Below are positions 3,359 to 63,700 of a stretch of 64,000 nucleotides of DNA, in pieces (the first letter of the stretch is position 1; the number at the start of each line of letters is the position of its first letter). Position numbers and translations under genes: made by a program. The stretch lies in assembly GCA_000091205.1 (NCBI GenBank), contig AP006501.2; one strand, written 5' to 3'. The notes beneath the pieces are model-generated. The model was not told where the DNA came from and ran no database searches. It worked only from the letters and a program-made list of their open reading frames with translations. Source of the stretch: Cyanidioschyzon merolae (Eukaryota).

Positions 3359-6126
3359 GTGCGAAACGATAGATCAATGGAATTCGTTGTCCATGAAAAG
3401 TACGCTGTCGTGCGTGCGGGGTATACGGCGGCGCTGGAGCGTCGTATGATGCGACACGGTCAACTCGATAGGCAGCATCATTGGGCCGCTTCTCTGGCCG
3501 CTTTACGGAAGCTTTGCTCATGACGCATCGTTTTCGTATGAATGGTGAAAGGAATATGCGGTTATTTCCTTACGATGACGACTCGAGATTTTCAATGAGT
3601 CCACAATCGTGCATGAAAGAATGTCATGTTGGTGCTGGAATGGAGGCTATGACCGGTGCTGTCGGCGTATCGCGGGTTGATAGACTTGGGAATCCGCAAG
3701 AACACCACCGCTGCTGCACAGGGATATTCAGAATGAATGAGATGTAGATGATGGAGGATGTGCTTGTCTCCATGCAGTCATGCATGCGAATTTCATGCGT
3801 GACATGGGAAACAAGGCACGCTTTACTCGGCACGCTCCTGATACCAAGCACATATTTCAGCGCCTCTTCTGGGATACACTGCATGATGAGGACTTGAACC
3901 TTGAGGGATTCCCTTTACCAGCTCGCAGTGAGTCTACATGCAGTTTCGTAGAGCAATCGAATCCGAAACATGACCCAGGGGCGTCTCCCACGTACCTGGA
4001 ATGCCCACGCCCCTGTATCCCATGCTCCATACCAAATTCAGTGTTCTTTCGTGAGCGCGTGCCTGAGACCCGATTATTCTGGTGAAACACGCGCGTTCTC
4101 AAGGGCATTGCACGGTCCATTGACCTTCGAACAATGCTGTCTGGGTCGAGCGACACACGCAGTCTCTAGTGGGGTACGATCTTCACTGCCACCCGAGTGT
4201 TATCCGAACAACGCGTTGGCATCCTCTCGTGCTTATAGTCTTGTGACTCAGTTTCGTTTCGACTCCGCTGCGGCGTACAGCAGGAGACCGAAAGCACGAT
4301 ACCATGTACTGTATAGATTTTAGAAGCATTGCCTGTAGGATATATTGTTTACAAAGCAGCAGAAGGAAGACTGCATTTTCGCTTCAGACAAGTCATACCA
4401 TACTACTCCGATGGTTGAGTAACACTGAAAGAGACATGTAGATGCGTTCCGAGCCAAAAACCGATATTCTCAAGGAATGGTTGCGGTCAATAGTAGAAAG
4501 CGACCCATCGATTACCTTACGTAAACCAAAAGCGACAGCAGTAGCCGCAAGGGGCGTCACTGTTTCTCACCAGCTTATTCTTGCGGTCCTGAAAACACCG
4601 GTATGCGGTCGCAAAAAAACAGCCTTGCTTCACGCATAGTCATCTCGCACCGATATCGAAGCTACGACAGCGTTTCTGGAAAGTCACAATCGGTATGAAG
4701 CACAAGGACGTCGGCTTGTCCTTTTCCAGCCGATGCGACGTCATTCGGACGAAACGGTCGGAGCGTAGAGGGGTATTCGGCGAGCAGGGACTCAGTAGTA
4801 CGTCCGTCCGAACTCGAAGAGAACTGGGATATCAGCATTTGTTCTAGCTGCAGTGGATGCATTTGGCGGCCTCGGTTTGGCTCGAAGATACAGAAACGGA
4901 AGTCGGGGATCCTCGCAAGCTCGGTGCCGCCTGGTGCTGGAGAAAGACGAAAAATCCTCTTCTTCCCGATCATTTAGCGAAGAAGAGCAAGTAACGAAGA
5001 AGAAACAGATGAGGGGAGATGATCGAGAAGAGGTTTTCGCTCGAAAGGACGGTAACGAGACCTTCATGGCACAGCGGGCGTGAATTCAAGGAATCTTGGC
5101 GTTAATGAGTTCAACCAGAGCCAATCAACGCAGCCATCAACATAAGACGATGTCTGGTGCTGCAGACAAGACCCACAGAGCTGACGAGAGCCAGTTTCGT
5201 GTGACAGCCTATCAGCCACGAAAGCTTCTAGGACAAACTAAAACCGATGGCAGACGGTCAGTTAAAAAATGGCTGGGAGGCGTCTGCGAGTGGATAGGTA
5301 TATTTCCCGTCCATGATCATAGGACATTTTGTGATTCTCTGATCGCATATCTTGACAGAGTAGTGCAATAGTCGGCTGGAGTGAGGCGGCTCCTTTTCGC
5401 TCGAGAACCTGCTATGTGCCGGGAGCCGGTTACACTTCAATGATGTAGACACATGCAGCCTGGTACGTTGGGCTGCTTTCTCGAGCCGCGAAATACCCAG
5501 GCACGTTCTGCTGCTTTCGAGCACTGGCGGCAGCGCGGAGAAGCAATCGACATCGCGAAACTGCATTGCGTAGCGGGCCCGAGATGCAAACTGGTCATCT
5601 TCATGGACGACGCTTGTGCGCGATCGGCTCGTCTTGGCATCGAGTCCGTTTACGGCAGACGCTCTTCCGCAGATTTCTGGTCTGGCCTTCATGGCGGGCG
5701 CGCGGTCAAGCCAGTGCTCTGCTTTCGTCTATCAGTGATGCTGCATGAGGCCTGAACGCAGTCACGATTTCGACGGAACTATTTTAATCGCTCAGATGGA
5801 GTCGTGTTCCACATCTCAACCGGGCAGTACATTTGCTTCATCTTGTCAGGTTTGAAACCAGATCACCAACGCGTCTGGTGAAACAGGTCACTAGAGCGTT
5901 CCCCAGCTGTCCCGGATGCAGGCTTGGCGCCACGTGAAAAGCATCCAGCACCAAAGGCTCTGCGATGAGCGGCAAGCACCTGATGATTGCGCATGTGGCT
6001 CGTGATTCCCATAGATACCGATCTGAGGCGTTCGTTGCCCCGCCGGTACGATGCCAGTCGTCAGTGCCGACCATCACATCTCCATGTACCTCGTTGGGGT
6101 CAGGATTCGCAATCTTTGGGATATGC

Positions 6127-7872
6127 TTACGAGAGGCCGTACGTCTCGAGCGGGTGCCGCACTCGGTCAAAGTCGTAGACACGACGTGGATCCGTGATAT
6201 GCCCTGTGATGGCACTAGCAGCGGCAGTATAGGGCGAGGCGAGGAAGACCGCACTCGATTTGTCGCCCATTCGGCCTGGAAAATTCCGATTTGTGGTGCT
6301 CACAACGACCTCGGGCCCGTTCGCACGCCCAAAGGTGTCCTTCGGACCTCCCAGACACGCTGCGCAACTCGGGGCACCCGGCGGAAGGCATCCCGCGTCC
6401 TTGAAAATCTGCATCAGAGTCTTGCCGTTAAGTTTTCTGGTTTCCAGGTCTTCATAGATGCGGCGTGTGGCCGGAACAAGAAACGTAGGAACACGTACCT
6501 GACGCCCGTCGAGAATCCGCGCTGCGGCAACAAAGTCCTCCGTCTTGCCGCCAGTGCAAGAGCCAATGTACACTCGCGTAATCTTCACGTCCTCGCAATT
6601 GCGGGCAAGATCTAAATTATCGGGGCTGTGTGGTTTCGCTACCGCAGGCTCCAGTTTGGATAAGTCGTACTGTCGGTCCGTGTAGAATGAGGCATTCGAG
6701 TCGGTGTGGAACACATCAAACGGCTTCGTTGTTCGTGCTCGGACGTAAGCACACGTAATTTCATCCGGAGGAAAGATGCCGTTCTTACCACCAGCCTCAA
6801 TCGCCATATTACAAAGTGTCATGCGATCGGCAATAGAAAACTGCTCCATCCGATCACTGACAAACTCCATCGCCCGGTAGGTAGCGCCAGCGACACCAAT
6901 ATCGCCTATGATTTGGAGAATGATATCCTTGGCCATGATGTAATCAGGCAGGGTTCCATTCAAGGCAAAGCGCATTGTTGCGGGCACTTTGATGAGGAGC
7001 TTACCGGTGCCCATTATAAAACCTGCATCAGTGTTCCCGATGCCAGTCGCGAACTCGCCGAAAGCTCCTGCAGTACACGTGTGAGAATCTGTCCCGAAAA
7101 GCACCTCACCAGGACGGCAGTGCCCTTCCTGCGCCAGTGCTATGTGGCAGACCCCTTTGTATTCAGGGTTCGCCCGAAAGTCGCTCCGATCGGTGATATC
7201 GTAGAAGTAACGGATGCCTTGTTCGCGAGCAAAATCCCGAATAATATCCACGTTCCTATTCGCTTTCTCATCCGCAGTGAAGATGTAGTGATCGGGGATA
7301 ATGACAATCTTTTCAGGGTCCCAGACAGGTGCATCCGAACCGAACTCGCGTTTGAAGACTGCGATCGTCCCCGGACCACAGACGTCGTGTGTCATGAGCA
7401 CATCAACGTCAACAAAGAGATTCTCTCCTGGTTTCACGAAGCTCCTTCCAGCGGCTTTGGCTATGATCTTCTCTGTTATCGTCTGCGGCGCCTTCACGGC
7501 TACACTCGGAGCTGCCTTCGTTGAGGTCGGCGCAGAGATACCAGACTTTAATTCAGCCAGGGGATTTTTGGGGCCAATTCGTACCCGTCGCTGCTCCTGA
7601 CTGACTCCAGTTCTGGCACTGCAACCTTGTGCTCGGCTATGAAGTGTCACTGGAGAAACGAACATGATATTGTAAACGAGGGAAGACGCACCCGGTATAG
7701 CGTAACTGCTCCAAAGCCTGAAATCATGCGATGGTTCGCGCGCGTTCGTCGCGTGCAGCGTCGCGAGTGCCCTCCGTCGGCATAAAGAGAAATACATCCT
7801 ACTGGATATAAGTGGATACAACGGACACATCCCAGGGGGCGCCCGGGCTGCATCCGGCTTCAATCTAGACAT
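6127..7872 (-). CDS. leuC: 3-isopropylmalate dehydratase large subunit (aconitase-family, LeuC/HACN type) with an N-terminal extension
   Basis: 581-aa ORF with a true ATG at 7872. LeuC-like blocks include TITEKIIAKAAGRSFVKPGE...LMTHDVCGPG, FGTDSHTCTAGAFGEFATGIG, YIGSCTGGKTEDF and VSTTNRNFPGRMG (Fe-S ligands). The ~100-130 aa N-terminal extension is consistent with organellar targeting. The separate-subunit bacterial type is typical of plastid-bearing lineages. Confidence 0.85.
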   Translation of the reverse strand: MSRLKPDAARAPPGMCPLYPLISSRMYFSLCRRRALATLHATNAREPSHDFRLWSSYAIPGASSLVYNIMFVSPVTLHSRAQGCSARTGVSQEQRRVRIGPKNPLAELKSGISAPTSTKAAPSVAVKAPQTITEKIIAKAAGRSFVKPGENLFVDVDVLMTHDVCGPGTIAVFKREFGSDAPVWDPEKIVIIPDHYIFTADEKANRNVDIIRDFAREQGIRYFYDITDRSDFRANPEYKGVCHIALAQEGHCRPGEVLFGTDSHTCTAGAFGEFATGIGNTDAGFIMGTGKLLIKVPATMRFALNGTLPDYIMAKDIILQIIGDIGVAGATYRAMEFVSDRMEQFSIADRMTLCNMAIEAGGKNGIFPPDEITCAYVRARTTKPFDVFHTDSNASFYTDRQYDLSKLEPAVAKPHSPDNLDLARNCEDVKITRVYIGSCTGGKTEDFVAAARILDGRQVRVPTFLVPATRRIYEDLETRKLNGKTLMQIFKDAGCLPPGAPSCAACLGGPKDTFGRANGPEVVVSTTNRNFPGRMGDKSSAVFLASPYTAAASAITGHITDPRRVYDFDRVRHPLETYGLS

Positions 7873-31273: not shown

Positions 31274-32341
31274 TCGGAGGCTGCGCGCGACGGACCCACA
31301 AGAGCGGAGTTTCTGCGAACACACACGCAGACACGAAGTGTGACACCGACTGAGCCACTGACACTCTCCCCCGTGGTTTTGATGTCTCGCGCGATGTTAT
31401 GCGCCGGTTCTCCCGAGAACGTACCGCTGTCAACGATCTGGAGCGTCACTACGCAGGCCTGCACATCGATACGTTGTCGTGTGGTGCCCCCAGATTCAGT
31501 GGGCAGCGCTGCTAGAAAAGCGCACGGCATGTCTTCTTCTGCTGATTCGAGAGACACCAGACGCAGTCAATGGCGATCCAACCCACCCCATCCGTGTTGT
31601 AGACGTGAATATCCCGGATACCCGGAATCCAAGAGCAACAGCGTCTGCGTGCCGCTCGCCAGCGTTGCAACAGTGCGCATTCGATAACCGCGGTCCGCCG
31701 CAGCTAGCGTTCGATGCATGCTCAACATCCGCAGTATCGCTGGATCGACGTAGCTTCAAACCATGGGGAACGCTCTGCTCTTGTGTTTTCGGTATGCCGA
31801 AGCGTCTCTCGAGGGGCCGAAACGCCATCCCAGTCCTCCGGTCGCATTTGCGCATCGGGGAGAAACATTGCTTGGACGCATCCTCATCGCCTCGTGAGCA
31901 TATTGAGAGCCTCGCGCAGGTGTCGGCAGCGTCAGCTCCCGGTAGGCAAGCGATTCCCATGCACCTGCTGGCTGCCCCGAGCTGACGTCTTCAGTGGTAC
32001 AGCAAAGCTGGTCTGTCTTCGTGCTGCGTGCGTACAGGCGCTACTCGTGCACCATTGCGGATGCTCACGACAGGTTCCGCAAGCGATGGATCGTACCAAA
32101 TGACCAGTACGTCAGAGGGAAAGTGCAGTTGGCGGAACATGGAGAAGGAGACACGACCGTTCCTTTTCCGATCGTTGATATATCAAAAGCAGAATCGAGG
32201 ATCCCTGGTCTGTGTAAACGCTCTGTCAAGCAAAAGAAAAATGACGTCGCTGCTGCACCATCCGTGTCGCGCGCACACGCAGATACATGCCTGCGACGCG
32301 CGTTTTCGCAGCACTGGTGGTACCGTTTTTGCCTCTTGCAA

Positions 32342-48894: not shown

Positions 48895-50695
48895 GCCTCG
48901 CCGTCAGCTGGTGTGCGTAGCCGTTGCCGCTTAGGCCCCAACGGTTCGCCCGTGCGTTGTCCACAAAAGGTCCCCAGTCACCGCCGTTTCCAAGCTGGCC
49001 GTTCTGCCAACGATTTCGCTCTGTGCCGACATCATCCATCTTTGACGAAGGTGAAGCGATACTCCACGCTGCGCAATACAACTGCTCGCCCCGTCAGCCG
49101 CAACCTTCGGGAGACACGCACGCACACCCCCCCAACTGACGCCTACACACGCACGCTCGAACGGAATCGAGATCATCATGCGTGCCGGTGTGCGCAGCAG
49201 CAGCCGGCGCGCGATGCCTTGTCCGAATCACCCAGGCGTCAGCGACGCTTCCGCCTTCGCCGCCTGCTGATCAGCGCAAATGGCGCTTGGCAATGTGGCG
49301 AGGGGGCGGCAGCGGCGCTGTTTTTGCGCCCCTGTGCAGTAGCGCGCTCCTGCCTGGGCGCAACCGCTCAACGGATCGCGGTGTACGCCAGCGCGTGCAC
49401 GATGATACGGAGCGCGCTTCTCGCCTTTCAACTCAATGACGTTCCACATCAAGGTACGTGTCGTCAAATGCTTTTCGCAGTTTGCAGCAGGTGTGTTCGA
49501 AGTATGTTCAACTAAAGCAATAAAAATTCAAGTGGGGGTTATGGGCATGGTAGTTAGGGGTTTCGGAGAGCTCTCCATGCCACGTCCGATGAAAACAAAT
49601 CAAAAAAATTTTCTTCTTGCTGATCATCGGGCGAACGAAAGCAAGTGATGAAGAAGCAGAAGACGAGGAGATATGGGCGAGAAAAGGAGTTTGCCCGACG
49701 AGACAATGCCGAGGTTGTATTGATACAGAGGGCGTGAGTAAGAGGAATGCTTGCATTGTTGACTTCCGCCAGCGGCAATGTACGCGAGGAGCTTATGAAA
49801 CGAGAGTTCAATGCTGGTATCAGTATAAGATGAATTGTGTTGCTGGAGACGGAACCCGAGGCGCTGACGCGAGCCGCCTTTGTAAGGTAACCTCTCAGCG
49901 TCGAAGTGTGCCTGGATAAACTGTAGCGGATACCAGGCAGTCGGTCAAAAAAGGCTGGGAGGCGTCGAAAAGTGGGTGAATAGATATACCCCCATGGTCG
50001 TGACACATTGTTCGTTGTGCTCACCACGTATGTAGATGCTGGTGCGAGCACCGTATGCTATGGCAACAGGGTAATGCTTTCCTATGAGAACGGGCCCTGG
50101 GTCCTTTGGCTCCGATGCCGTCTCGTGCATGCCCGTATGCATCGCATCACGCTCGGCAGCGTGATCGACGAGCCCGTTTGGAGCATGTCACACGTGTGTC
50201 TCGGTGCGGTATAATTTCGGAACTCTCGAATCACCGGTAGAGTCTTTATTGTACTAGAGCTCGCTTTAGCGGCACGACAGACTCGAATGCGTGACGCGTT
50301 GGCGGCCGTCAGAGCGCCACTAAGGGCTGTGGTGGCTCGGCTATCTTGCCCCGGCACATGGACATATTATTCCGTTTCCCCATCATAATCACCAGAGCCG
50401 CATGTTCCATGTCCATCCATACTGCCTGCTCAGATTGCTGCTCAACCGACTACGCTTGTATGGCATACGCATTAGGCCATCGAAGCCAATAGGCGCTTGA
50501 GACTAGAACGCAACAGCTGCAGCCATGCATAGTTGCCTCCTCGTGCGGCTGGCGCCCGCTAATGTTTGCGTTTGCGCAGTCTCATACAAGCGCGGCCTTC
50601 GTCACGTCAACAAAATGAGTCTTATTCGGCACCAGGTGGCGTAGTCGAGCGGTCTCCATCTGAGCATGCGATCGCCACGCACACCTGCAACGACC

Positions 50696-51320: not shown

Positions 51321-52787
51321 ATGAGAGACGCATTGTACCTCGCTTTCGTAGCGCCTTTTCTACAAAAACAGTCGACGCGTAGGTTTACCGGCTTGAAGGT
51401 CAACGGTGCGTCGTCCGCGAATCAAATGTGGACCTGGAGCCGAACCACGGGACTAGAAGGACCTTCCTGCAGAGGCCAGCAAGCCTTGCCGTTTCAAATG
51501 ACAACCGCGCCTGAGACGTCCAAGGTTTCCACGCGCAGTGTTCCGGGTTGGACTGTGAGCGGGTCTACAGACGACGTCATCGAGTTACTCGTTCCTGAGG
51601 CAATGCGCCCTGAACTCGAGGCCGAAGCACGAACGTTGCCGCGCGTTGTGCTGACCGAGGAGACCGACCTGCAGTGGCTTCACGTACTGAGCGAGGGCTG
51701 GGCATCGCCCCTGCGCGGCTATATGCGCGAAGAGGAGTATCTGCAGTGCCTTCATTTCAATTGCTTGCGTTCTACGAGCGGAACTCTATACAACCAGTCT
51801 GTGGCAATTGTGCTCACGGTAGACGATGCCCAGCGACAGGCCATTGAAGCCAGCGGGCGGAACGCTATTTGCATTACATGGCACGAACGGCCTGAGGAGC
51901 CCCTTGCTATTCTCCGGAACCCAGAGTTCTACGTTCACAACAAGGAGGAGCGCTGCGCGCGACAACTCGGGACGACGCACCCCAAACATCCCTATGCAGA
52001 AGTCATCTATCGTTCAGGAAACTGGCTCGTAGGCGGTGACTTGCAAGTCCTCAAGCGCATCAAGTACAACGATGGTCTGGATGCATACCGCTTGACTCCG
52101 AAAGAACTTCGTCGTGAGTTCCACAAACGCGGTGCCGACGCTGTTTTTGTGTTTCAGCTGCGGAACCCGATCCATAATGGACACGCGCTGCTCATGACGA
52201 GCTGCCGTGAAGACCTCCTGCGTCGTGGCTACCGCAACCCGATTCTACTGGTGCACCAGATTGGTGGTCGCGTCAAGGCCGACGACGTACCGCTTCGAGA
52301 ACGCATCCTACAGAACCAGGAAGTGATCGCCGAGGGCATTCTTGATCCAGAATCCACCATGCTCGGGATTTTCCCTAGTCCTATGATGTACGCAGGCCCA
52401 ACCGAGGTGCAATGGCACGCCAAAGCTCGCATGAATGCAGGTTGCCAGTTTTACATCGTTGGTCGGGACCCAGCTGGGGTCAAGCACCCTGATGGCGATC
52501 GCGACCTCTACGATCCATGGCACGGGAAGAAAGTGCTCCTGAGCGCGCTCGGGCTCGAACGACTCGAGATCCTCCCGTTTCGAGTGGCGGCCTACGACAA
52601 AAAGATCGGGAAAATGGCGTTTTTCGATCCATCGAGAGCAGACGACTTTCTGTTCATCTCGGGTACTAAAATGCGGGCGTTTGCCGCACGCGGGGAATCA
52701 CCACCTGACGGATTCATGGGTGTGCGTGCGTGGAAGGTGCTCGAAAACTATTACGCACAAAAACGAGAAGCGCAGGGGTCCTCTTGA
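51321..52787 (+). CDS. ATP sulfurylase (sulfate adenylyltransferase), plant/plastid type
   Basis: QLRNPIHNGHALLM (the conserved RNP(V/I)HNGH motif), ...YIVGRDPAG..., and PUA-like N-domain blocks. 488 aa with a ~60-aa N-terminal leader. True ATG at 51321. No APS-kinase-like C-domain, which a fungal type would have. Confidence 0.9.
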   Translation: MRDALYLAFVAPFLQKQSTRRFTGLKVNGASSANQMWTWSRTTGLEGPSCRGQQALPFQMTTAPETSKVSTRSVPGWTVSGSTDDVIELLVPEAMRPELEAEARTLPRVVLTEETDLQWLHVLSEGWASPLRGYMREEEYLQCLHFNCLRSTSGTLYNQSVAIVLTVDDAQRQAIEASGRNAICITWHERPEEPLAILRNPEFYVHNKEERCARQLGTTHPKHPYAEVIYRSGNWLVGGDLQVLKRIKYNDGLDAYRLTPKELRREFHKRGADAVFVFQLRNPIHNGHALLMTSCREDLLRRGYRNPILLVHQIGGRVKADDVPLRERILQNQEVIAEGILDPESTMLGIFPSPMMYAGPTEVQWHAKARMNAGCQFYIVGRDPAGVKHPDGDRDLYDPWHGKKVLLSALGLERLEILPFRVAAYDKKIGKMAFFDPSRADDFLFISGTKMRAFAARGESPPDGFMGVRAWKVLENYYAQKREAQGSS

Positions 52788-52975: not shown

Positions 52976-55325
52976 ATCGTAGCCTTGCTAAGCGTCTGTG
53001 CATATGCACTCAGGGGAAAAAATTCGGCTGGCAACGTGCTCCCTCAAACGTGAATCTGCCGTCCAGAGCTTTGCTGGTCGCCTAACAGCATTAGGCAAGA
53101 ATGTTGCTTTATTTGAGAGCATATCGATGGTGAGAACCCTCGACTCGACGATAGGCTCTTCAAGATGAGGTCGTCCAGCGCAACATAGCGCCATAGCGCG
53201 CACGCCAGCGTTCGTACCCGATCAGGAGTACCTCGAAAGGCCCTGGCGCTCCCCGAAAAGAATGACCGAATAACGCGTACTAGCGCTGGTTGGCCGTATC
53301 GATCGCACGGGAGTGAACCGTTTGCGTCGTAAGCCCCTGGTGCATCGCAGTCGCGAGCCTGACGGGCACAAGTCCCTTGCGAACACCGGTGGCAGATAGT
53401 CGAGGCACCAGCTCCGTCGACGAAGGCGCTAGCAGCGAAGCAGGACCAGGGGTTTCCTGGTTAAGTTCATCGGTTCTGGACCATGAAAAAGCAAAGCAGC
53501 AGGGTAAACTGGCTATCGCGGAATCCCGCCATACTTTACTCAGTGACGGCTAGGCTACCCAACGCAACATCTTTCGCCAAGACGCGGTCTCACAACGCGG
53601 TGCGCTCTGCAAGCACATCCTGCAGGTCTCGCTCCGAGTCCGTGCTTAGACTGTTATTGCACCCAAACTTTTCAGTGACTCTATCCTTAGGTGCTGAATT
53701 TACGGCAAGCATCCCCGTGACGCAGTGCGTTGCCCCCGACCGCGACACAGGCGCGGTGGCTGGCCAGTGAACAGTCAGCTAGTACCAAAACTTCGCTGAG
53801 TACTCGACATCACCCGCGTTAGAACGAAATGGTTCGGGTCGACTCGGCGAACTCACGTGTAAACAGTAGAATGTGCATTCCTTCCTACTGTCATCAACAC
53901 CAGGCCTTGCGTACGTTTTCTCGTATTGCTTTCTTTTCCTCTCTCTTTCATTCCCGTCTTTAGATACGCCCGTTGGCCCGTCTCTCAAGCTCTGTTGTCA
54001 GGAGTCATAGGATGTTCGTGACAGCTTCCAACTGCCATTTTCATAGCTTGTGGCTGTTGTCGATGCATTGCATGCCATGCTGTACATAGCCATCTATGCT
54101 TCACTTGCAATTTTTACCTTATTGCGGACAGTGTCGGTGCTTCCCTCGATGCGGTTACACTCGACAGCTTTCAGATGCACCGATATATCCACAAAATCAT
54201 CTGTTCTGATTACCGCCCTGTGCCGCATAAGCGTTTGCTTCAGCGCTCTCTTCATAGCCTTGATGGCTGCAGAAGTTTTTTTCAATACCCTCCTCCGTTC
54301 CCGCGCCCAATACCGTAGCGTTATATCACGAAAGCGTTCCGGGCGATCACTCGTCGAGTGTTCTGTTCGCTCTGCAGGCACACGTGCGTTGTTCCATTTG
54401 AGGAAGGATTTGTGGAACGCGATGTTGATCATGATGAAATAAGTACTGTATTGGAAATCCAGAGTGGAGATCAAGGTGAGTAACTTCGATCCGTCTATGC
54501 TCGCTTCTTGTAGAGTGCTGACGAACGCTTCACAGGAGGCAATCGCTCGGATGACTTGAGTCCGAACCCAAGACCATTCGCCATGCAAACATAAAAGACG
54601 TGTGCCTCCAGAGCATATCCGGTAGAAATTATCACGCTTCTGTCAAATAATGCTTCCACAATGGTCACAAGGAGAGGAGGATTTGTGTTTAGACCGGACT
54701 CGATAATTTGATGCGAAAGATTCAGTGCTCTTCCTGTATGACATTAAGAAGAAATCTTCAAGGAACGAGGAGCAGTCTTTTTCGCATCAATCCAGCGGCG
54801 CGAATTCCAGCGCCACGAATTGCCTCAGAAACATCGAGAACATGGCTAGAGTGTGATTTGAGCAAACTCCTCGTAATGAATGATGAAGCTTGGAGGCTTG
54901 TTCGTATCAGTTGGACGATCAAATCGGTTACACTACGAATCCTTGTTCAAATACATCGCGAGTTATTTGGATCCAGGTGGCGTAATGATGTCAACGGCAA
55001 AGAGTCAAAGAAGCGACGCCCAAAAGGTGACCCAGAATCCCCAAGCTACATATAAGTGCTATAGTCCGCATTGCAGCAAGTTGAATCTCGAGACTCTACA
55101 CCTAAAAAGAGTTCGGCAAATGTCGAAATGCAAGAGCAGATCGAGTACTTCAGTGTTCCATTTCGACCCGACACGGGTGTGGAATCCATCACGCACAGCG
55201 AATGCCGCAAACCTACTCCACGCTGCACATGTAGACCGCTACCACCAACCTCAGTACGAGGCCTACGTGCGCCCTCTTTCAACGGCATATCCATAATCCG
55301 CTCAGGACGGTTTCATCCGCGCTTT

Positions 55326-56912
55326 CTACACGGCCTGCTCGTTTATCTCACCAAGATGATCGATGCAACTGATTCGCAGCGTCGACGTTGGTTTCTGGAT
55401 GCGGCAACGTCGGCGTATGTCGTCCAGAGCGATCTGAAAATATTCCACCGGACGAGCGGAATCTAGAAACTCATCGTGATCGGCTACATCTCCGTCAACA
55501 TAGTACCCGATATGACCAATGCCATTTGGTGCAAATATGTGCACGAATCCATTGGCGTCTAGTGTTATGCGCGGTGAACGGCCCACTGCATGTAGTGGAT
55601 GACTCGGGCGTTCACTGGCGGAGGCGCCGTTAGTAACAGGTAGCATACGAGTGACCGAAGCGTGTGGTGCATTCGCAACCTGATAAGGAACACGCGCATC
55701 ATGCTCTAGTCGCTCGGGTGATGGTAGTGGTGATGCGGCTGGTTGCGCAGTGAACGAGGCCCAGTCCGGCTCTATCTGCTCTACAACAGCAAGTGCACCA
55801 ACAAAGTGCCGATGGAAATGCAAGCGGCAAGCAGCACTCCTATCCCAGTGCGGTTCGTGTGCCTCCCGCTCTGGATCTGGGTCTTGCACCGTGAAAAGAC
55901 GGTAGAAATAGTCAAAGCCGCGGGCCATGATACCACCACCGCGGCACGGATGCGGAAGCGACAGACAGTGACCCAGTTCATGCAGCATCGCGCCAATTGT
56001 TGTGGAGGCCAAGGCCCAGCGTTCACCGCGACCGGCGCTATCATCGAAGAAGTTAATTGAGTCTACGCGTCTCCGATCACTAAAGCGCTTTGGCACTTCT
56101 GAGAGCGTCTGTGGCCATGCGTACATACCACTGGAGCCAAAGAGCGCTAACGTGCCTCCACCAAGTGCTGTGTGTCCATACACACGGCCTGTGCTCGCAT
56201 CTTTTGACGTGAAAGACATGACAGCCACGTCGATACACTGCTGGCGGTTAGATATGTTCGAGAGCTCCTCAGCAATCATACCCCAGAGCGCGTCACCCGA
56301 AAGTGCATGCAGCTCGGCTCGTGTCCGCGACAGACGCCTTACATGAACAGGTACATCATAGGCGCAGTGAATCTCTTCGATATTCCCTGGCAACGGAGTC
56401 GCACACGCAGCGCTCATACGTTCAATGCAAAAGCTCAAATGACCGAGGCCTTGCTCATGAAGCAACTCTGCGGCAGCTGTTTGCATGAGTCGTAACGCTA
56501 ACGCGAAACGGCGCACGGCGCTCGCAAGCATACAGTCTTCGTCGGGCGGAGCTTGGAAACGCACCTCCACGGCGTCTCGCGGCACGACGTAGACTGCTCG
56601 GACTACATAGTCCCAGGGGACGTCCAGATAGTGAACGCGAAACTGCAGTTTCGCTGGCCCGCTCAGCGGACCCGCAGCGACAAGGTTTACCCCTGGTTGC
56701 AGCCAGACTAACGCTCGAAACCTACCATCGCAGTTGCGCACAGGCCAAGGCGTTCGTTGCTGTTCAGCAACCAAACTACCTGGTTGAGCATTTGCCAAGT
56801 AAACGACGACGCACGTGAGGTGCTCATTGAGCGGCACCTGACCGCATATCAGAAGCAACGGAAACGTTACAGCTTCGTCTGGTCGGAGGTTCTCAACCCG
56901 CCATCGCACCAT
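55326..56912 (-). CDS. Zinc metallopeptidase (HEXXH), putative peptidase family resembling yeast YIL108W
   Basis: True ATG at 56912, 528 aa. GAMLHELGHCLSLPHPCRGGGIMARGFDYFYR contains an HExxH zinc-binding motif with a downstream GL.H-type third-ligand context. Confidence 0.6.
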   Translation of the reverse strand: MVRWRVENLRPDEAVTFPLLLICGQVPLNEHLTCVVVYLANAQPGSLVAEQQRTPWPVRNCDGRFRALVWLQPGVNLVAAGPLSGPAKLQFRVHYLDVPWDYVVRAVYVVPRDAVEVRFQAPPDEDCMLASAVRRFALALRLMQTAAAELLHEQGLGHLSFCIERMSAACATPLPGNIEEIHCAYDVPVHVRRLSRTRAELHALSGDALWGMIAEELSNISNRQQCIDVAVMSFTSKDASTGRVYGHTALGGGTLALFGSSGMYAWPQTLSEVPKRFSDRRRVDSINFFDDSAGRGERWALASTTIGAMLHELGHCLSLPHPCRGGGIMARGFDYFYRLFTVQDPDPEREAHEPHWDRSAACRLHFHRHFVGALAVVEQIEPDWASFTAQPAASPLPSPERLEHDARVPYQVANAPHASVTRMLPVTNGASASERPSHPLHAVGRSPRITLDANGFVHIFAPNGIGHIGYYVDGDVADHDEFLDSARPVEYFQIALDDIRRRCRIQKPTSTLRISCIDHLGEINEQAV

Positions 56913-56920
56913 TCACGCCG

Positions 56921-56943
56921 TTCGAAAGTCGAACGACGCGAAC
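56921..56943 (-). other. Strong RNA hairpin in the 59-nt spacer between the Fanzor stop and the metallopeptidase ATG
   Basis: Minus-strand cgtcgttcga-CUU-tcgaacggcg forms a 10-bp stem (one G-U) with a 3-nt loop. Its core cgttcgaaagtcgaacg (plus 56919-56935) is a perfect 7-bp palindrome. No U-run follows it. Confidence 0.4.
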
Positions 56944-56971
56944 GGTGTACAGTAGTGGCGGCAACCGCGCC

Positions 56972-59185
56972 CTAGACGAAACGTATACAACTGACGTTCA
57001 GACGCCTTCCAGCCTTTTTGGACCGGCCACCCACTACTGCTTCCAACTTTTTCGCATATAGTTCGACTTTGAGGGGTTGCCTAACAACATTCTCTCGTGT
57101 CAACTCCGGAGGTCTCTTCTCCAGCACCGCGCATTTCCTTAGATTGATGGCGGCATTAAAATCTCGATTCACGAATTCCATCCGTTTCTTGCCATCACTG
57201 GCTGTATTCACTAATGCGAGTAATCCTCGCACTTTTGCCCTCCTTTCCATTTGCTCCCCCGTCAGCGGCCCATACTTTTTTATATCCTCAGGGCACCTCT
57301 GGCACTTTTCCATCTCGACCCTCTGAAGTGTACACCCCAGTTCAGGGTGTATATAGGACGTCCGGAACTCATCTATAGGTATCGTAACGAAACGCCGTGC
57401 ACACTCCTTGTATATTCTTGTCGTTGGAGCAGGCGTAGTTCCTTTTTGGGTCTTCCAACACCCTGCCCCATACGCTACGAAGAGCCTCTGACCTTCATCC
57501 TCCTTCAAGGCGCTCAACTGATTGGAAAAAATTCGCGAACGCCCGCTGCCTCCCACCGTATACATTCATACGCACTCGAATCCACCGAGGCTTGGTATAC
57601 TCCTCCCACAGCGCATCCCAATGAGCAACACGAACTTCCATCAATTTCAGAAAAGCCTGAAAGTCCGCATTCCGGCTCGTCACCTCACTCATAGCTTCCA
57701 GGCGATCCTTCATTCCTTCGTTCCATGTCTCAATTTTCTTCCTTGCATTCATTATACCGGATTCCCGATAATATCTTGCTCTCGAGAACCCCAAAGTTCG
57801 CATGTCTTTCTGACGTAAGCTACCGTCAATGACATCTTCCGCACGCTTGGGTGCTGCGATGGTAATGATATTCGTATTCCCAGGGTCCGCGCCAACGACA
57901 AAGTCGTTATCCTCTACCTGCTGCGTCGCTGGATCCTCCTTCTCCTTTTCTCCATGCTTCGTCACGGGCTCAGCCGAAGGCAGGACTGGACGATCTGTCT
58001 TGAACCGCCCATAGTGTACACACATGGCTACTCTATCGGATTCCATCATCCTCTTGAATACCTTTTGTTTACTCATTTTGAGACGTTTGAAATCTAAGAT
58101 ATCCTTCCAGTACGTCTCCCGGTTTTCGCCGGTGAAGTCCTCCCTGCTAGCATCAAACTCGGGATTGATATCCCTCATGATGCCGTTATGGACGCCGAAG
58201 TCGATACTCACAAAATGTGACTTGATGTTGCACAACGGAACGCCGTTGAAGCGCTTTCCCGTTAGGAAAGCCTTCCGTCTCTCCCACTCTTCATTTTTTT
58301 CCCCACTCAGCTTCATCTCTGCCTTGCGTTCGAGCTCTCGGTCCAGAAACACAAAATAGCGCAGGATGAGGCCATGATATCTTTCCTTACCGTTTTTCAA
58401 CTCTGATATCTTTTCTGCTAGATTCGCCAGCCCCAAGTCTGCGCGGCGCTCTTGAATAGCCGCACGGATTACAGAAGCTTCATTCGTGCTCTCGTTTGAC
58501 GCCTTCTTGTCGACGAATTCGATCTCATCTTCACGCTTGCGATCTTTCGTGATGCCGTCGATAATCGCCCATTTTCCATTGCGAGACAGACCCGGGTAGA
58601 GTGCAGCCACGCGCGTATCATGAAACGTTCGAGGTTCATGTTCAAATGGTTCTTCAGATTCGTGAGGTACTTCATAGCCCCATAGTCGTAAATATCCCGG
58701 TCACCCTTGTATCGAGTACCCTCGAAGCAGAATTTCGCGAAGTTTTCGTGGAGGACGTGCACCCGCTCATTTTCCCTCCATGTTTCCTCTGTACCAAGCA
58801 TCAGCTGACGAACAAAGGTCTTATCGAAAAACTCGTCCGGAATCTCGACCATTTCCACGTGCGTCACGTCGCGATACATCTCCCTCACCAAATGCATCAG
58901 TCCTGATGACGCCTTGACAATACTCTTGGAGTACGAATCGACACGGTTCCTAATGGCCTCTCGCAACTTTTGTTTGTGAGGATCCTTGTTATGTTTAAGA
59001 AGACAGGTTTTCACCACCATCTCGTCGTACTGTCTTCTTTCTCGCAGCCTTGGACGTGCGGCCTCCTGCCTTTGCTTCTTCTGCCCTTCCTGTTCTTCTT
59101 CGCCCCGCCATGTTTTTCGTGTTTCTCCACCAACCGGCGACACAGGGCCCCAGGATCCTCCGCTTCCACTTCCATAACTTTCCAT
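56972..59185 (-). CDS. Fanzor (eukaryotic TnpB-like RNA-guided RuvC endonuclease), interrupted: three ORF segments joined by a 46-nt intron and one unresolved frameshift/intron
   Basis: Segment A (59185 down to ~58700, starting [10 protein letters not shown]... at a true ATG) carries a basic stretch [17 protein letters not shown] (NLS-like). Segment B (~58700-57564) carries RuvC-I ...[19 protein letters not shown] (Asp codon at 57887..57885) and the TnpB/Fanzor bridge region ...[15 protein letters not shown]. Segment C (57517-56972) carries ...[20 protein letters not shown]..., RuvC-II ...[19 protein letters not shown]..., Cys-x-Cys spacing (EKCQRC), and RuvC-III ...[17 protein letters not shown] (RD.NAA.N, the TnpB hallmark). 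Total ~720 aa, consistent with Fanzor1-class length. Confidence 0.75.
57518..57563 (-). other. 46-nt spliceosomal mini-intron inside the Fanzor gene
   Basis: Minus-strand sequence: aat|GTATACGGTGGGAGGCAGCGGGCGTTCGCGAATTTTTTCCAATCAG|ttg. It has a GTATAC donor, a pyrimidine tract and a CAG acceptor. Removing it joins ...RVRMN exactly in frame to [21 protein letters not shown]..., which restores the expected TnpB/Fanzor domain order. Without splicing, a stop (57568..57566) separates the frames. Confidence 0.6.
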
Positions 59186-60335
59186 TTTTAATTTTTTATA
59201 ACGCTCTCTGAACGCTTCTGCTCCAAACAGCGAAAAATCACTTGAATACACTTGCTTGAGTGTTGAAACACAATTGAACTGAATAATATACGTTGCTACG
59301 ACTTTAATGAAAATAAAATTTGCCGGGTAGAACAACACGCTACAGATTAGGATTCCATTCCTCTTCAACGGCGACATGCGCGTCGTGTCTCGTGACCACC
59401 TGATCCGGAGGTGCGCGTACCGACCGCGCTATACAAACGAAGAGCAAAAATGAATCATTAAATAGCGACGAGGTAACAATGTCTTTCTTCCTCTACGAGA
59501 AACGTAAAAAGGATGAAAGTTTTTCGTATTGTGGAAAAGTTTACCTTACAGGCGGAGGGTCCTGCGAGCTGGACGATTCTGCTAGGCTGGTGCTCGGTGT
59601 GCCTCTAAAGTGGCGGATGCTGTAGCGAGACCTGCGCAGCTCGTCCGCAACGCAGTTTTTTGGGACTAGGGGCAACAAAGCCGCGTCTGGGCGTCGCCCT
59701 GTTGCGGTGGTCTCCTAGTATATCGTTTCGCGCTGCCGCAGAAAGTACGTCCGTCAGCGCAGCTTGCAGACTCTCAGAACTATTATGTACTCCGAGACGA
59801 TGCCAGGTGCACCACGCCTCGAGCCGACGCCCTCAGTAGTATGGCAAAGCCGTTCTGTCTCCGTGCAGCATCCGCACCAGCGGTAGGCGCTACATCTGGT
59901 GCTGACGCCAGGCACTTGCTGCACGATAGAATGTACGAGACAACCTGTATATCCTCGAGGAAGTATAAGAAATGAAGCTTGAAGGTAAGTGCATCATAGT
60001 GGACGCTTTCCCGAAAGCAAATATCCATCCCGCAATCTGGGATCCATGGTCAATATAAACGTCTTGTCATCGAAATATGCCTCCCGACTGGGGGACGCGT
60101 CAGCGTCGCAGCGCATCGCTGCTGGCGACCCGACGGCTGGACACGTTTCCTCTGCGTATCTGTGCCGCACGGCGCTGCAGTGCCTGGAGACTCCAAGAAG
60201 TGGGGTGTGCGTTTTGTTTGACGGATCGGTAGTGGTTGGGTGTGCTACAGTTCCACGAAGCAAACCGTTCTGCTTAGTTGTGTTCTCTCTAGAGTTCTTT
60301 CCGCGGAGGCCTGAGACTTAGCGAATTTATTTGTT

Positions 60336-60773
60336 ATGAGCAAGAAAGGCGGAGACGTCCCCGAGTACGTGTACGAGCCATACCAAGGTGACGGGTACGC
60401 ACCTCCTCCTCCGGCAGCGAACTCTAGTAGCGTGTATAGGTACCAGACAGGTACGAATGCTGTGCCGCCGCCGCCGCCTCCGACGCAGAACGGCGTCGCT
60501 TATGCTTACAGTCCTGCGGGGGCGCCGCCGCCACCGCCACCCCCAAACTTTTCTTATGCCTACAGCGAGGCCCTGCCGGACGGCACCTCCCGACACTATT
60601 ATTACGCCCAGCGGACCTACTCGAACGCGCATGGGCGGTATCAGAACACGAACTTTGACCAGAACGACCAGCTTGCGCGGGGGTGTCTCTACGCCTGCTG
60701 CGAAGGTATGGCGGCTGGTCTGTGTGCGGCGCTGACCTTCGAGTGTTGCCTCGGTTTGTGCGGTTTCTGGTAA
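60336..60773 (+). CDS. CYSTM (cysteine-rich transmembrane module) family protein
   Basis: True ATG at 60336. Pro/Tyr-rich N-terminus (PPPPPPTQNG, PPPPPPPNFSYAY) and a C-terminal Cys-rich hydrophobic module CLYACCEGMAAGLCAALTFECCLGLCGFW, typical of CYSTM proteins. 145 aa. Confidence 0.6.
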   Translation: MSKKGGDVPEYVYEPYQGDGYAPPPPAANSSSVYRYQTGTNAVPPPPPPTQNGVAYAYSPAGAPPPPPPPNFSYAYSEALPDGTSRHYYYAQRTYSNAHGRYQNTNFDQNDQLARGCLYACCEGMAAGLCAALTFECCLGLCGFW

Positions 60774-63700
60774 GCAATTGGTCAGGGGTGTGCCATGCGT
60801 CTCGTGGCTCGATCAATAGACAGCTCACACCATCATGGACGATGTGGCCGAACTTGGAGTATCATATGGTTTGCGCCCCGTAGCGGGCAGCTCTGTGCTG
60901 CGTAGACAGGTCTCTCCGAACCGTTGCATATGTCATCCAGGATTTTGCATGTTATATATGAAGAACCCCTCCTGCAGATCGAGGAAAATCACCGTCTTCG
61001 GAACGCGAGTAGTAACCGGTCTGTTCCAGCTGTATGCGGATTGTCAGCCCGAGGTTTACTGGCAATAAATCTGGTGCTTTTCGGAAAATAGATTGAGCAT
61101 CTCGAAGGGTACATCGTAAATGCTGTATTTTCTGCATAAAGTTACATCAAAAACATGCCAAGTATCAGAGGCATAGCTCACGCCCCGGACCGTCTCAGTC
61201 TTAGCGGGATCTGCACCGGACCCTATCAGAAAGTTACTACGCACACTGGTGTATGCGTTGTCCGAAATTCGCCAACTCTACTTCCATAGTGCCGTACGGT
61301 GTAGAGGCGCGAAGCGTCCAATGAACCTGTGTGCGACAAGTCCAGCTCGGCCAATTTTCTGTGGCGCTGGGTACGTATCCACGCTTGTCGTACGTCGAAG
61401 GGCGGCTTTGCGATGCTTTCATTGATGTCGGCCCGAGGGATCGAGCACTCTGCCCCGTGCGACGTCATACTGAAGAGGGATCGTGTGGCTGGACGCATAG
61501 CGTTTCCGTCTTTGACATCATCACTCGTGTGACAGTTTTCAATAAACTCGAGACAGCTGATCTTCAGCATGCCTGGTTACTAGGACGCACCAAGCAACAC
61601 GTATGCCGTACCATTAAGAGACTGCCTTACAAAGCAGCAAGAAGCAGAAGCAAAACGCAGCCATACAGAAGGGTGGCGCTAGCGCTGGCAGTCCACAACA
61701 AACTTGGATGCTTCCAGCGAACTCAAACGGGTTACGCCTCCATTCTTCTCCGCGCACACAAGCAGCTAGCAGGGACAGTACGAAAGCTCCCGTTCCACGC
61801 GCGAAATAGACTACAAAAGGTTCTGCTTTATGATTATGATACTTGTTCTTGCCTTTATATGGAGCCGGCCGCTGCCGAATAAAAACTATCTACCGACAAG
61901 AGAACAGACTCTGCCAAGCTAATTCCAACTTCGGATGCACGTACTTGCCAACTGCGTTCAAGGGTTTTTCTGAAGACTGCACGTTGCGACTGCGGAGCCC
62001 GGCACCGCATCAGTACGCCAACTAGCGTTTTCATGGTGCAGAATCGATGAATATAGCTAGGCCAATGTCAAACTTCAATGCAACTGGTCCACGTACCGAC
62101 TTTGGGCGAAGAATCTAAAGCCTCGGCCTCATCCAATGTCATCAACGCCAGCATTTACGTATTTTTGCTGCGACTGGTCCCATTTTCTCCTTTTTTCTGG
62201 ATTACGATACGCTGGTCCCTCCTTTTGCTCAAGTTCCATTGTCAGTAGCCGAAAGACCTAGATGACGGCATTATATTTCCTTTTTCACCATTTTTGGAAG
62301 TTGCCCATACAATTCATGCACAGGCGGCGGTTGCGACATGCGCGTCGTTTGCGATAAGGGAATCGTCTTGGCATACGGTCGCGCTGTACCCGCTGCAGGG
62401 GTGACACTTGAGACTGGTCAGGCGTTCCCTCAGATGCACACGAGCTCCCCGTCATCCTCCTCTTCCTCCAAGGGCCGCCCCACGGTACCTGAACGCTCCC
62501 CTCACCACCCGGTACATGCCCATGACGGGTGCAGAGTGCCCCCATGGGTGCCCGACTCCGTTGCGCGCTGTGCGCTACGTTTGCGTGCTTGTTCTGGGCG
62601 ATCCCCTAGGAGCGGACGTCGTACGCTCGACGTGCAAGCGCACCATGTTCCATTCGACAGAGCCTGTATGGAATGCAACGTTGTCCGTGGTGTAACGAGT
62701 GGCCGACGGAAAACCCAGGCTGGAGATTTGTTCGAGAAATTTGGATTTATGTTCACTCATTTCGTGCTAAGCTGCGACGCGTCCTCTACAGGAAGCGATC
62801 GCTACGATCGCTCAAGTTCGAGTCCATAACCGTATTCCGTGCAAAGAGAACAGACAGGAGCCTCTAAGGCATATTCCGTGGGACTTGTGATGCTTCATTC
62901 GAATGGAGCTTCCCTGATGTCCACAATAGGGGACGATTTGTCTTCGGAACGGAACCGATCATCGGACCTGAATCGGGCGGTGGTCTTTCAGCATGAGCTT
63001 GTGGGCACGTCGCCAAGGGACGACGCGGGCTACTACGTGCTCTCGTCGATCCATCGGCGCAAGTCGCTGTGCCCAACGAGCATCCTTGCAACAAAATAAG
63101 CGAAACCCCGGGAAGTCGGTGATTTGAGCACACTCCTGGCTGTCCAATTTGACAAGTAGAGGCTTGAACGTAAGCGTTGGATAATGGCATGTATTGATTT
63201 ACGAAAACTTGCTCTAAAGCGTCCTGAAAATGGCGATTTCGGTAACGTAACAAATTCCGGCGGCAGAGCGTCGTGTTTGCAAGTCCCAGAGGAAAACAAC
63301 GCAACCTTAAGCTACGGTGTAATCCTTACGCCCTCACTGCTTGAATTCGAGTGTGCAGGCTGTACACCTGGGAAGGGTTCGCAAAAAATCGCTAGCCAGG
63401 TACAGGGCGGGCGTTCAGTCTTGTACTTTAATCTGATACAGGCGCAGCATCGCAGCCGGGCGTGCTGTCGCCCTGATATGAACGCTCCTATACAGCCATC
63501 TGCTCGCGCTAGTTGCAGATTCCTCATCGTCGGGGAAGGTGCTCTTCTTCCAGGGAGCGGTCGATGCCTGCTGCAAATTCACTACGCCACACAGTTCCTC
63601 AAACGAAGACCAGCCATCCCTTACGCCCTCAATAATCGGGTTACTGACCCTACTCGCCAATGTGACCCTGAGCGGGCGCCATTCTGAGCGAGACCCGAGC

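Follow-up and report, generated by a model that had tools for sequence, protein, structure and literature searches.

The minus strand of the 64,000-nucleotide stretch of Cyanidioschyzon merolae DNA analysed here (the window) carries a full copy of the transposable element CMe-1A, whose single gene, coding for a Fanzor1 protein, is broken by three single-base indels (Table 1). CMe-1A is a Fanzor1 family of the C. merolae genome with about 150 copies of ~3 kb at ~80% identity to the consensus, some of them intact, and it possesses neither terminal inverted repeats nor a clear target-site duplication (Bao and Jurka 2013, Mob DNA 4:12, PMC3627910). The CMe-1 consensus protein is listed in the supplement table of that study as 734 amino acids encoded by one exon. 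When 60072-56916 was compared with the whole CMe-1A consensus (PMC3627910 supplement), the two aligned end to end, including both termini, at 86.6% identity with only small indels. Similarity to paralogous copies was limited by ~60075 at the start and ~56910 at the end, and the repaired protein matched the CMe-1 consensus with 81% identity over 725 residues without a gap. An ATP sulfurylase ORF at 51321-52784 of the window was identical in 488 of 488 residues to XP_005538770.1 of strain 10D, which identifies the host as 10D or a strain nearly identical to it.

Table 1. Features of the CMe-1A copy, its reading frames and its three single-base lesions (window coordinates).
Feature	Position	Strand	Details
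Complete CMe-1A element copy	56916..60072	minus	3157 bp; consensus 3169 bp
Fanzor1 (CMe-1) coding region	56972..59185	minus	two indels repaired: 737 codons + stop 56974-56972
Segment A ORF	58469..59185	minus	residues 1-192 native (59185-58611), then 47-residue out-of-frame tail
Segment B open frame	57495..58700	minus	native part 58610-57526 = residues 193-554; RuvC-I Asp434 57887-57885
Segment C	56972..57523	minus	residues 555-737; RuvC-II Glu606 57370-57368; RuvC-III Asp675 57163-57161
Frame A	open 59398 to 58472	minus	ATG 59185; stop 58471-58469
Frame B	open 58700 to 57498	minus	preceded by stop 58703-58701
Frame C	open 57565-56975	minus	same frame as A
Lesion 0	59150/59149	minus	1-nt deletion; CCTGG_GGCCC vs consensus CCTGGAGGCCC; A missing
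Lesion 1 (A-to-B frame change)	58611/58610 (58610..58612)	minus	1-nt deletion; Ala192 codon
Lesion 2 (B-to-C frame change)	57524..57525	minus	1-nt insertion, duplicated C; from paralogues and consensus
Conserved 3' element end, candidate omega-RNA scaffold	56916..57040	minus	last codons + 56 nt non-coding + terminal palindrome

Elsewhere in the window we noted five heavily decayed remnants of related Fanzor elements, at 49728-49974, 5124-5267 and 40283-40357 (all on the plus strand), 31974-32043 and 4885-4954. Three of them are C-terminal or 3'-end fragments that contain stops and retain 48-56% amino-acid identity, and the other two match the element's 5' non-coding region over a short length.

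Frame coordinates were checked by three-frame translation of the minus strand from 59400 to 56900. The translation bore out the initial annotation, which had described frames A and B as both open across 58469-58700 and bounded by the stops given in Table 1, except that the native N-terminal part in frame A comprises 192 residues, and not the ~160 proposed there. The 232-nt overlap in which both frames are open is unremarkable, since 30 + 47 open codons are expected with p ~0.11 at a stop-codon frequency of 0.028 (2.8% of codons in all six frames of the window). Segment B is offset from the frame shared by A and C because it is flanked by a −1 lesion and a +1 lesion. Read as encoded from ATG 59185, the gene specifies 192 native and 47 nonsense residues and ends at 58469. 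This stop lies upstream of all three RuvC motifs, so that the nuclease cannot be made from this copy. The repaired frames contained no in-frame stop in 737 codons, and segment C closes with a C-terminal extension that ends in RFV directly before the stop codon.

Segments A, B and C were joined where the protein sequence suggested, and the joined sequence was used as a search query. The search returned 44 relatives, and the 14 that were aligned (28-76% identity) read through both junctions without a break, as ..NLERF(M/L)xR(A/S)VxALYPGLS.. at junction 1 and ..QRAFANFFN(Q/E)LSALKEDE.. at junction 2. One such unbroken relative, P0001, is a 752-aa ORF at 5001-7259 of the metagenome locus L001. Genes on the metagenome contigs that carry these relatives were called prokaryote-style as plain ORFs, and the relatives are therefore uninterrupted. 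About 80 paralogous loci from metagenomes were then aligned at the DNA level.

The alignment with other copies that the initial annotation had called for displayed one uninterrupted frame across this site in those copies and located a 1-nt indel at the A-to-B change. In each of the 67 paralogue alignments that span the change there is one base more at 58610-58613. Where the consensus reads ATA CGC GCC GTG, the window has ATA CGC GC_ GTG, and at ATACGCGC-GTGG the missing base is T in L001, C in a second paralogue (L002) and C in the CMe-1A consensus. Downstream of 58610, mismatches to the paralogues peaked at third positions of the frame B codons (917, versus 585 and 565 at the other two), and this excess places the switch of coding frame at 58610. 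The junction between residues 192 and 193 falls inside a long helix (residues 163-196) that is predicted with confidence in the structural model described below.

At the B-to-C change the window reads AAT TTT TTC [C] AAT CAG, which returns frame B to the frame of A. DNA alignment to the paralogues revealed just one surplus base in AATTTTTTC[C]AATCAG, and the base at 57524/57525 was missing from 79 of 80 paralogue alignments, in agreement with the consensus. The adjoining T6 run was considered as the origin of this lesion and rejected: the paralogues have the same T6 run followed by a single C, which identifies the extra base as C. Around lesions 1 and 2 there were no further length differences relative to the intact paralogues and the published consensus.

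The third lesion, near the 5' end of the gene, lies nine codons past the consensus start codon (ATG 59175-59173), and the reading frame that begins there ends at 59013-59011. An upstream ATG at 59185-59183, absent from the consensus, happens to be in frame A; starting from it swaps the first 9 residues for 12 unrelated ones. Owing to this upstream ATG, frame A appeared complete in the initial annotation.

We then took a census of reading frames by tblastn in 83 loci. A frame change at 192/193 and at 554/555 was found only in contigs that represent the same locus as the window, and other CMe-1A copies had frameshifts of their own at other places. Nearly all of the 59 near-full-length paralogous copies contained frameshifts or stops; only about three were intact, and a long ORF with all three motifs was kept by L001, L007 and L004 only. 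Several seemingly different loci in the series L025-L071 (counted without de-replication of loci) shift frame at shared query positions, near residues 264, 297 and 325. This pattern reflects either duplication or mobilisation of decayed copies after the frameshift, or repeated sampling of the same loci across metagenomes. The stretch that separates RuvC-I from the N-terminal region (alignment columns ~440-570; window 57880-57960) also varies among the paralogues, in its number of tandem units of ~25 residues (..QEVEDNDLVVDAxKHEExKEA..). A single unit is present in the window copy, and blastn coverage at the units reached up to 195-fold against ~80-fold elsewhere.

Fanzor1 proteins are TnpB-like, RuvC-type RNA-guided endonucleases. 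The identification of the window gene as a Fanzor, made initially from the sequence alone, was supported by both family profile and fold match. In the repaired frames the catalytic D-E-D triad is intact, with D434 in GADPG, E606 in IDEFRTS and D675 in NRDFNAAIN, and the RuvC-I, -II and -III motifs align to those of Spizellomyces punctatus Fanzor1 (SpuFz1) as DPG, DE(F/Y)(R/K)T and NRD. The repaired protein alone gave no match in a Pfam scan and no relevant match in a single-sequence search of the PDB, and PF07282 was touched by only 3 of the 14 relatives. A profile built from the 14 family members matched SpuFz1 (8gkh) across the RuvC region with E=2.7e-8 and GtFz1 (9cer) with E=0.015. An AlphaFold2 model of the repaired protein had a mean pLDDT of 69. 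When this model was compared with the PDB by Foldseek, the top seven matches were SpuFz, PpFz and GtFz structures (E 1.5e-17 to 9e-13), with Cas12 and TnpB far behind. The repaired protein is thus predicted to adopt the Fanzor1 fold. By motifs, profile and predicted fold we class the copy as a member of Fanzor1, and by its open reading frame, which is interrupted by three 1-nt indels and stops before RuvC-I, we file it as a pseudogene.

SpuFz1 (PDB 8gkh, 9ceu-9cez) is a biochemically characterised RNA-guided endonuclease. The predicted fold of the repaired protein matches it over ~700 alignment columns (E=1.5e-17, TM about 0.5), whereas the sequence identity is only 16-17% and the window copy is frameshifted. 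To our knowledge no activity, omega-RNA or target-adjacent motif has been described for CMe-1. The TnpB proteins of IS200/IS605 elements, such as ISDra2 TnpB, resemble the CMe-1 system in their RuvC-type nuclease core, in the many decayed copies and in a 3' end that is conserved, predicted to be structured and reaches into the ORF. In contrast, the structural match to ISDra2 TnpB (PDB 8h1j) is far weaker (E=1.4e-2), the N-terminal helical region of CMe-1 is far larger than that of bacterial TnpB, the host is a eukaryote and there is no TnpA partner. With CMe-1A itself the window copy shares the host, the C-terminal extension (RFV), the match to the consensus and a single-exon protein, and it differs solely by its three private 1-nt indels, which remove it from the intact copies of the family.

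In the paralogue alignment of 56908-57060, conservation ran past the stop codon to a sharp boundary. The element terminates in the palindrome CGTCGTTCGA-CTT-TCGAACGGCG at 56938-56916 on the minus strand. The RNA of the 3' end was predicted to fold with −66.8 kcal/mol (z=-4.8) into a long stem, CAGTAGTGG / CCACTACTG, and a terminal hairpin. Over 39 copies, 74% of alignment cells were paired in this structure, which was derived from the window sequence, compared with 35-53% in slid controls. The RNAalifold consensus of the 3' end was weak (−2.97 kcal/mol) and Rfam gave no match in 56700-60300; the omega-RNA idea for this reason stays a lead. The element ends at 56916, and the ATG (56912) of a 528-aa PF12044 metallopeptidase ORF on the same strand follows 4 nt downstream; a look-up of the exact product of this ORF returned no record. 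Given this spacing, the 5' UTR or promoter of the metallopeptidase must be situated within the element, or else be read through it.

Contigs that represent the window locus and also span its flanking host genes come from five JGI metagenomes (L020, which is the L084 contig, L021, L022, L085 and L086). They are 99.7-99.9% identical to the window, from which they differ by 12-37 SNPs over 8-12 kb, all without a gap inside the element. The exact junction strings of all three lesions recur in each of the five. Since the lesions recur in five independent assemblies, sequencing error is excluded as their origin. Between the window and three of the metagenome alleles, 11 non-synonymous and 7 synonymous SNPs fell in the coding region, where 78% non-synonymous changes are expected under neutrality. 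The resulting allelic pN/pS of ~0.43 does not depart significantly from neutrality with 18 SNPs, yet is not clearly neutral. Among the SNPs are G199D and R368H, which change positions that are conserved or invariant, and the pattern is consistent with relaxed constraint, as far as this small sample goes. SNPs between 10D and the metagenomes were denser in the element than in its flanks (window 53975-62185 versus L020-L022); for L020, 9 of 15 differences lay inside 2.7 kb of the 8.2 kb compared.

Measured in the repaired frames against intact paralogues, dN/dS was 0.36-0.42, and 0.21 for segment C. Together with the lack of in-frame stops, these values indicate that the repaired frames are ancestral and that the decay is probably recent, the lineage having been under selection until a short time ago. 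The return to the original frame by a −1 and a +1 shift and the absence of in-frame stops fit a young pseudogene; they would also be expected of a copy still under some constraint.

Taking these data together, we conclude with high confidence that the window copy is a pseudogene of the known CMe-1A Fanzor1 transposon, inactivated by three real 1-nt indels. A CMe-1A copy carrying a single-exon Fanzor1 gene has gained a −1 change at 59150/59149, a −1 change at 58611/58610 and a +1 change at 57525/57524. The second of these is the A-to-B frame change and leads to a truncated product and no nuclease. The locus is a pseudogene, probably a young one, in a lineage under purifying selection until recently, with its lesions fixed in natural populations. 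A literature search for Fanzor genes with a frameshift or described as pseudogenes returned nothing specific.

The initial annotation had set two explanations of the A-to-B change side by side without choosing, a 1-nt indel that inactivates a transposon-borne Fanzor copy and an unusual splicing event. The former proved correct, in the shape of the deletion at 58611/58610, and the latter fell. A short or non-canonical spliceosomal intron in 58469-58703 would join A to B in a functional Fanzor mRNA, and suitable intervals do exist: when all GT-AG, GC-AG and AT-AC intervals of length 2 mod 3 in the overlap were enumerated, 103 were obtained, among them 19 phase-correct GT-AG intervals of 11 to 182 nt. 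The 19-nt GT..AG candidate that had been put forward, gtacctcacgaatctgaag, does occur at 58670-58652, out of phase as noted then, its length being 1 mod 3 where 2 mod 3 is needed. However, the copy is base-for-base collinear with the intact intronless paralogues and the single-exon CMe-1 consensus, and differs from them in length by 1 nt only; as it contains no extra sequence, an intron is excluded, and we put its chance at practically nil. Every candidate interval would moreover lose or change residues that the paralogues conserve, or would retain out-of-frame ones, frame B is under coding constraint downstream of 58610, and introns occur in only 0.5% of C. merolae genes (PMC1955436). The wording 'second unusual intron' had implied that the B-to-C change is an intron as well, whereas it is the duplicated C at 57525/57524. 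An error of sequencing or assembly in a gene that is really intact had also been raised. Such errors often take the form of single-base indels, and lesion 2 adjoins a T6 run, but the reference of C. merolae 10D is a finished Sanger genome, and the recurrence of identical junction strings in the same-locus metagenome assemblies, at a distance of 12-37 SNPs from the window, refutes this option and leaves it a negligible probability.

Programmed recoding, in which site 1 is passed by a −1 ribosomal frameshift or by transcriptional slippage and site 2 by a +1 shift, would yield a full-length nuclease from the lesioned gene. The shifts are opposite in sign and regain the original frame, UUU UUC C at site 2 makes slippage physically possible, and in-frame stops have not built up. 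Against this, site 1 (CGC GCG UGG) lacks a slippery X XXY YYZ heptamer as read from the sequence, neither shift exists in the consensus or in any of the ~80 paralogous loci, each of which stays in a single frame at both sites, and two independent low-efficiency events would be needed. Lesions that are private to the locus and a non-slippery site 1 argue against programmed frameshifting, which we regard as barely credible. By these arguments the copy is probably rescued neither at the RNA level nor at the level of translation. A further explanation is compatible with a pseudogene: the protein gene would be dead and the locus would serve a non-coding role, as donor of an omega-RNA or as promoter or 5' UTR of the metallopeptidase. 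The sharply conserved and well-folding 3' end, the element boundary directly before the metallopeptidase ATG on the same strand and the existence of intact paralogues as a source of Fanzor protein speak for such a role; the modest covariation support, for a structure taken from the window sequence itself, and the weak RNAalifold consensus speak against it, and we consider it unlikely. There is a slim chance that the copy is in this sense not fully dead, either donating an omega-RNA to the Fanzor of intact CMe-1A copies or having its 3' end co-opted as promoter or 5' UTR of the metallopeptidase. The mutually compensating −1 and +1 lesions, the lack of in-frame stops and the conserved, strongly folding 3' end could point this way. 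Among the forms that such residual function could take, a functional nuclease made by double recoding is the least likely.

The pseudogene reading settles the question of whether this copy encodes a functional nuclease: none is made from it, and there is no call for unusual splicing in a nearly intronless organism. The 2013 study had already described the family, with its copy number and the decay of most copies; the frame change is an ordinary one, and the wider significance is little. For annotation, both frame changes are to be recorded as lesions of a CMe-1A pseudogene rather than as introns. Where a C. merolae Fanzor1 adapted to heat and acid is wanted, the few intact paralogues or the consensus should be used, and not this locus.
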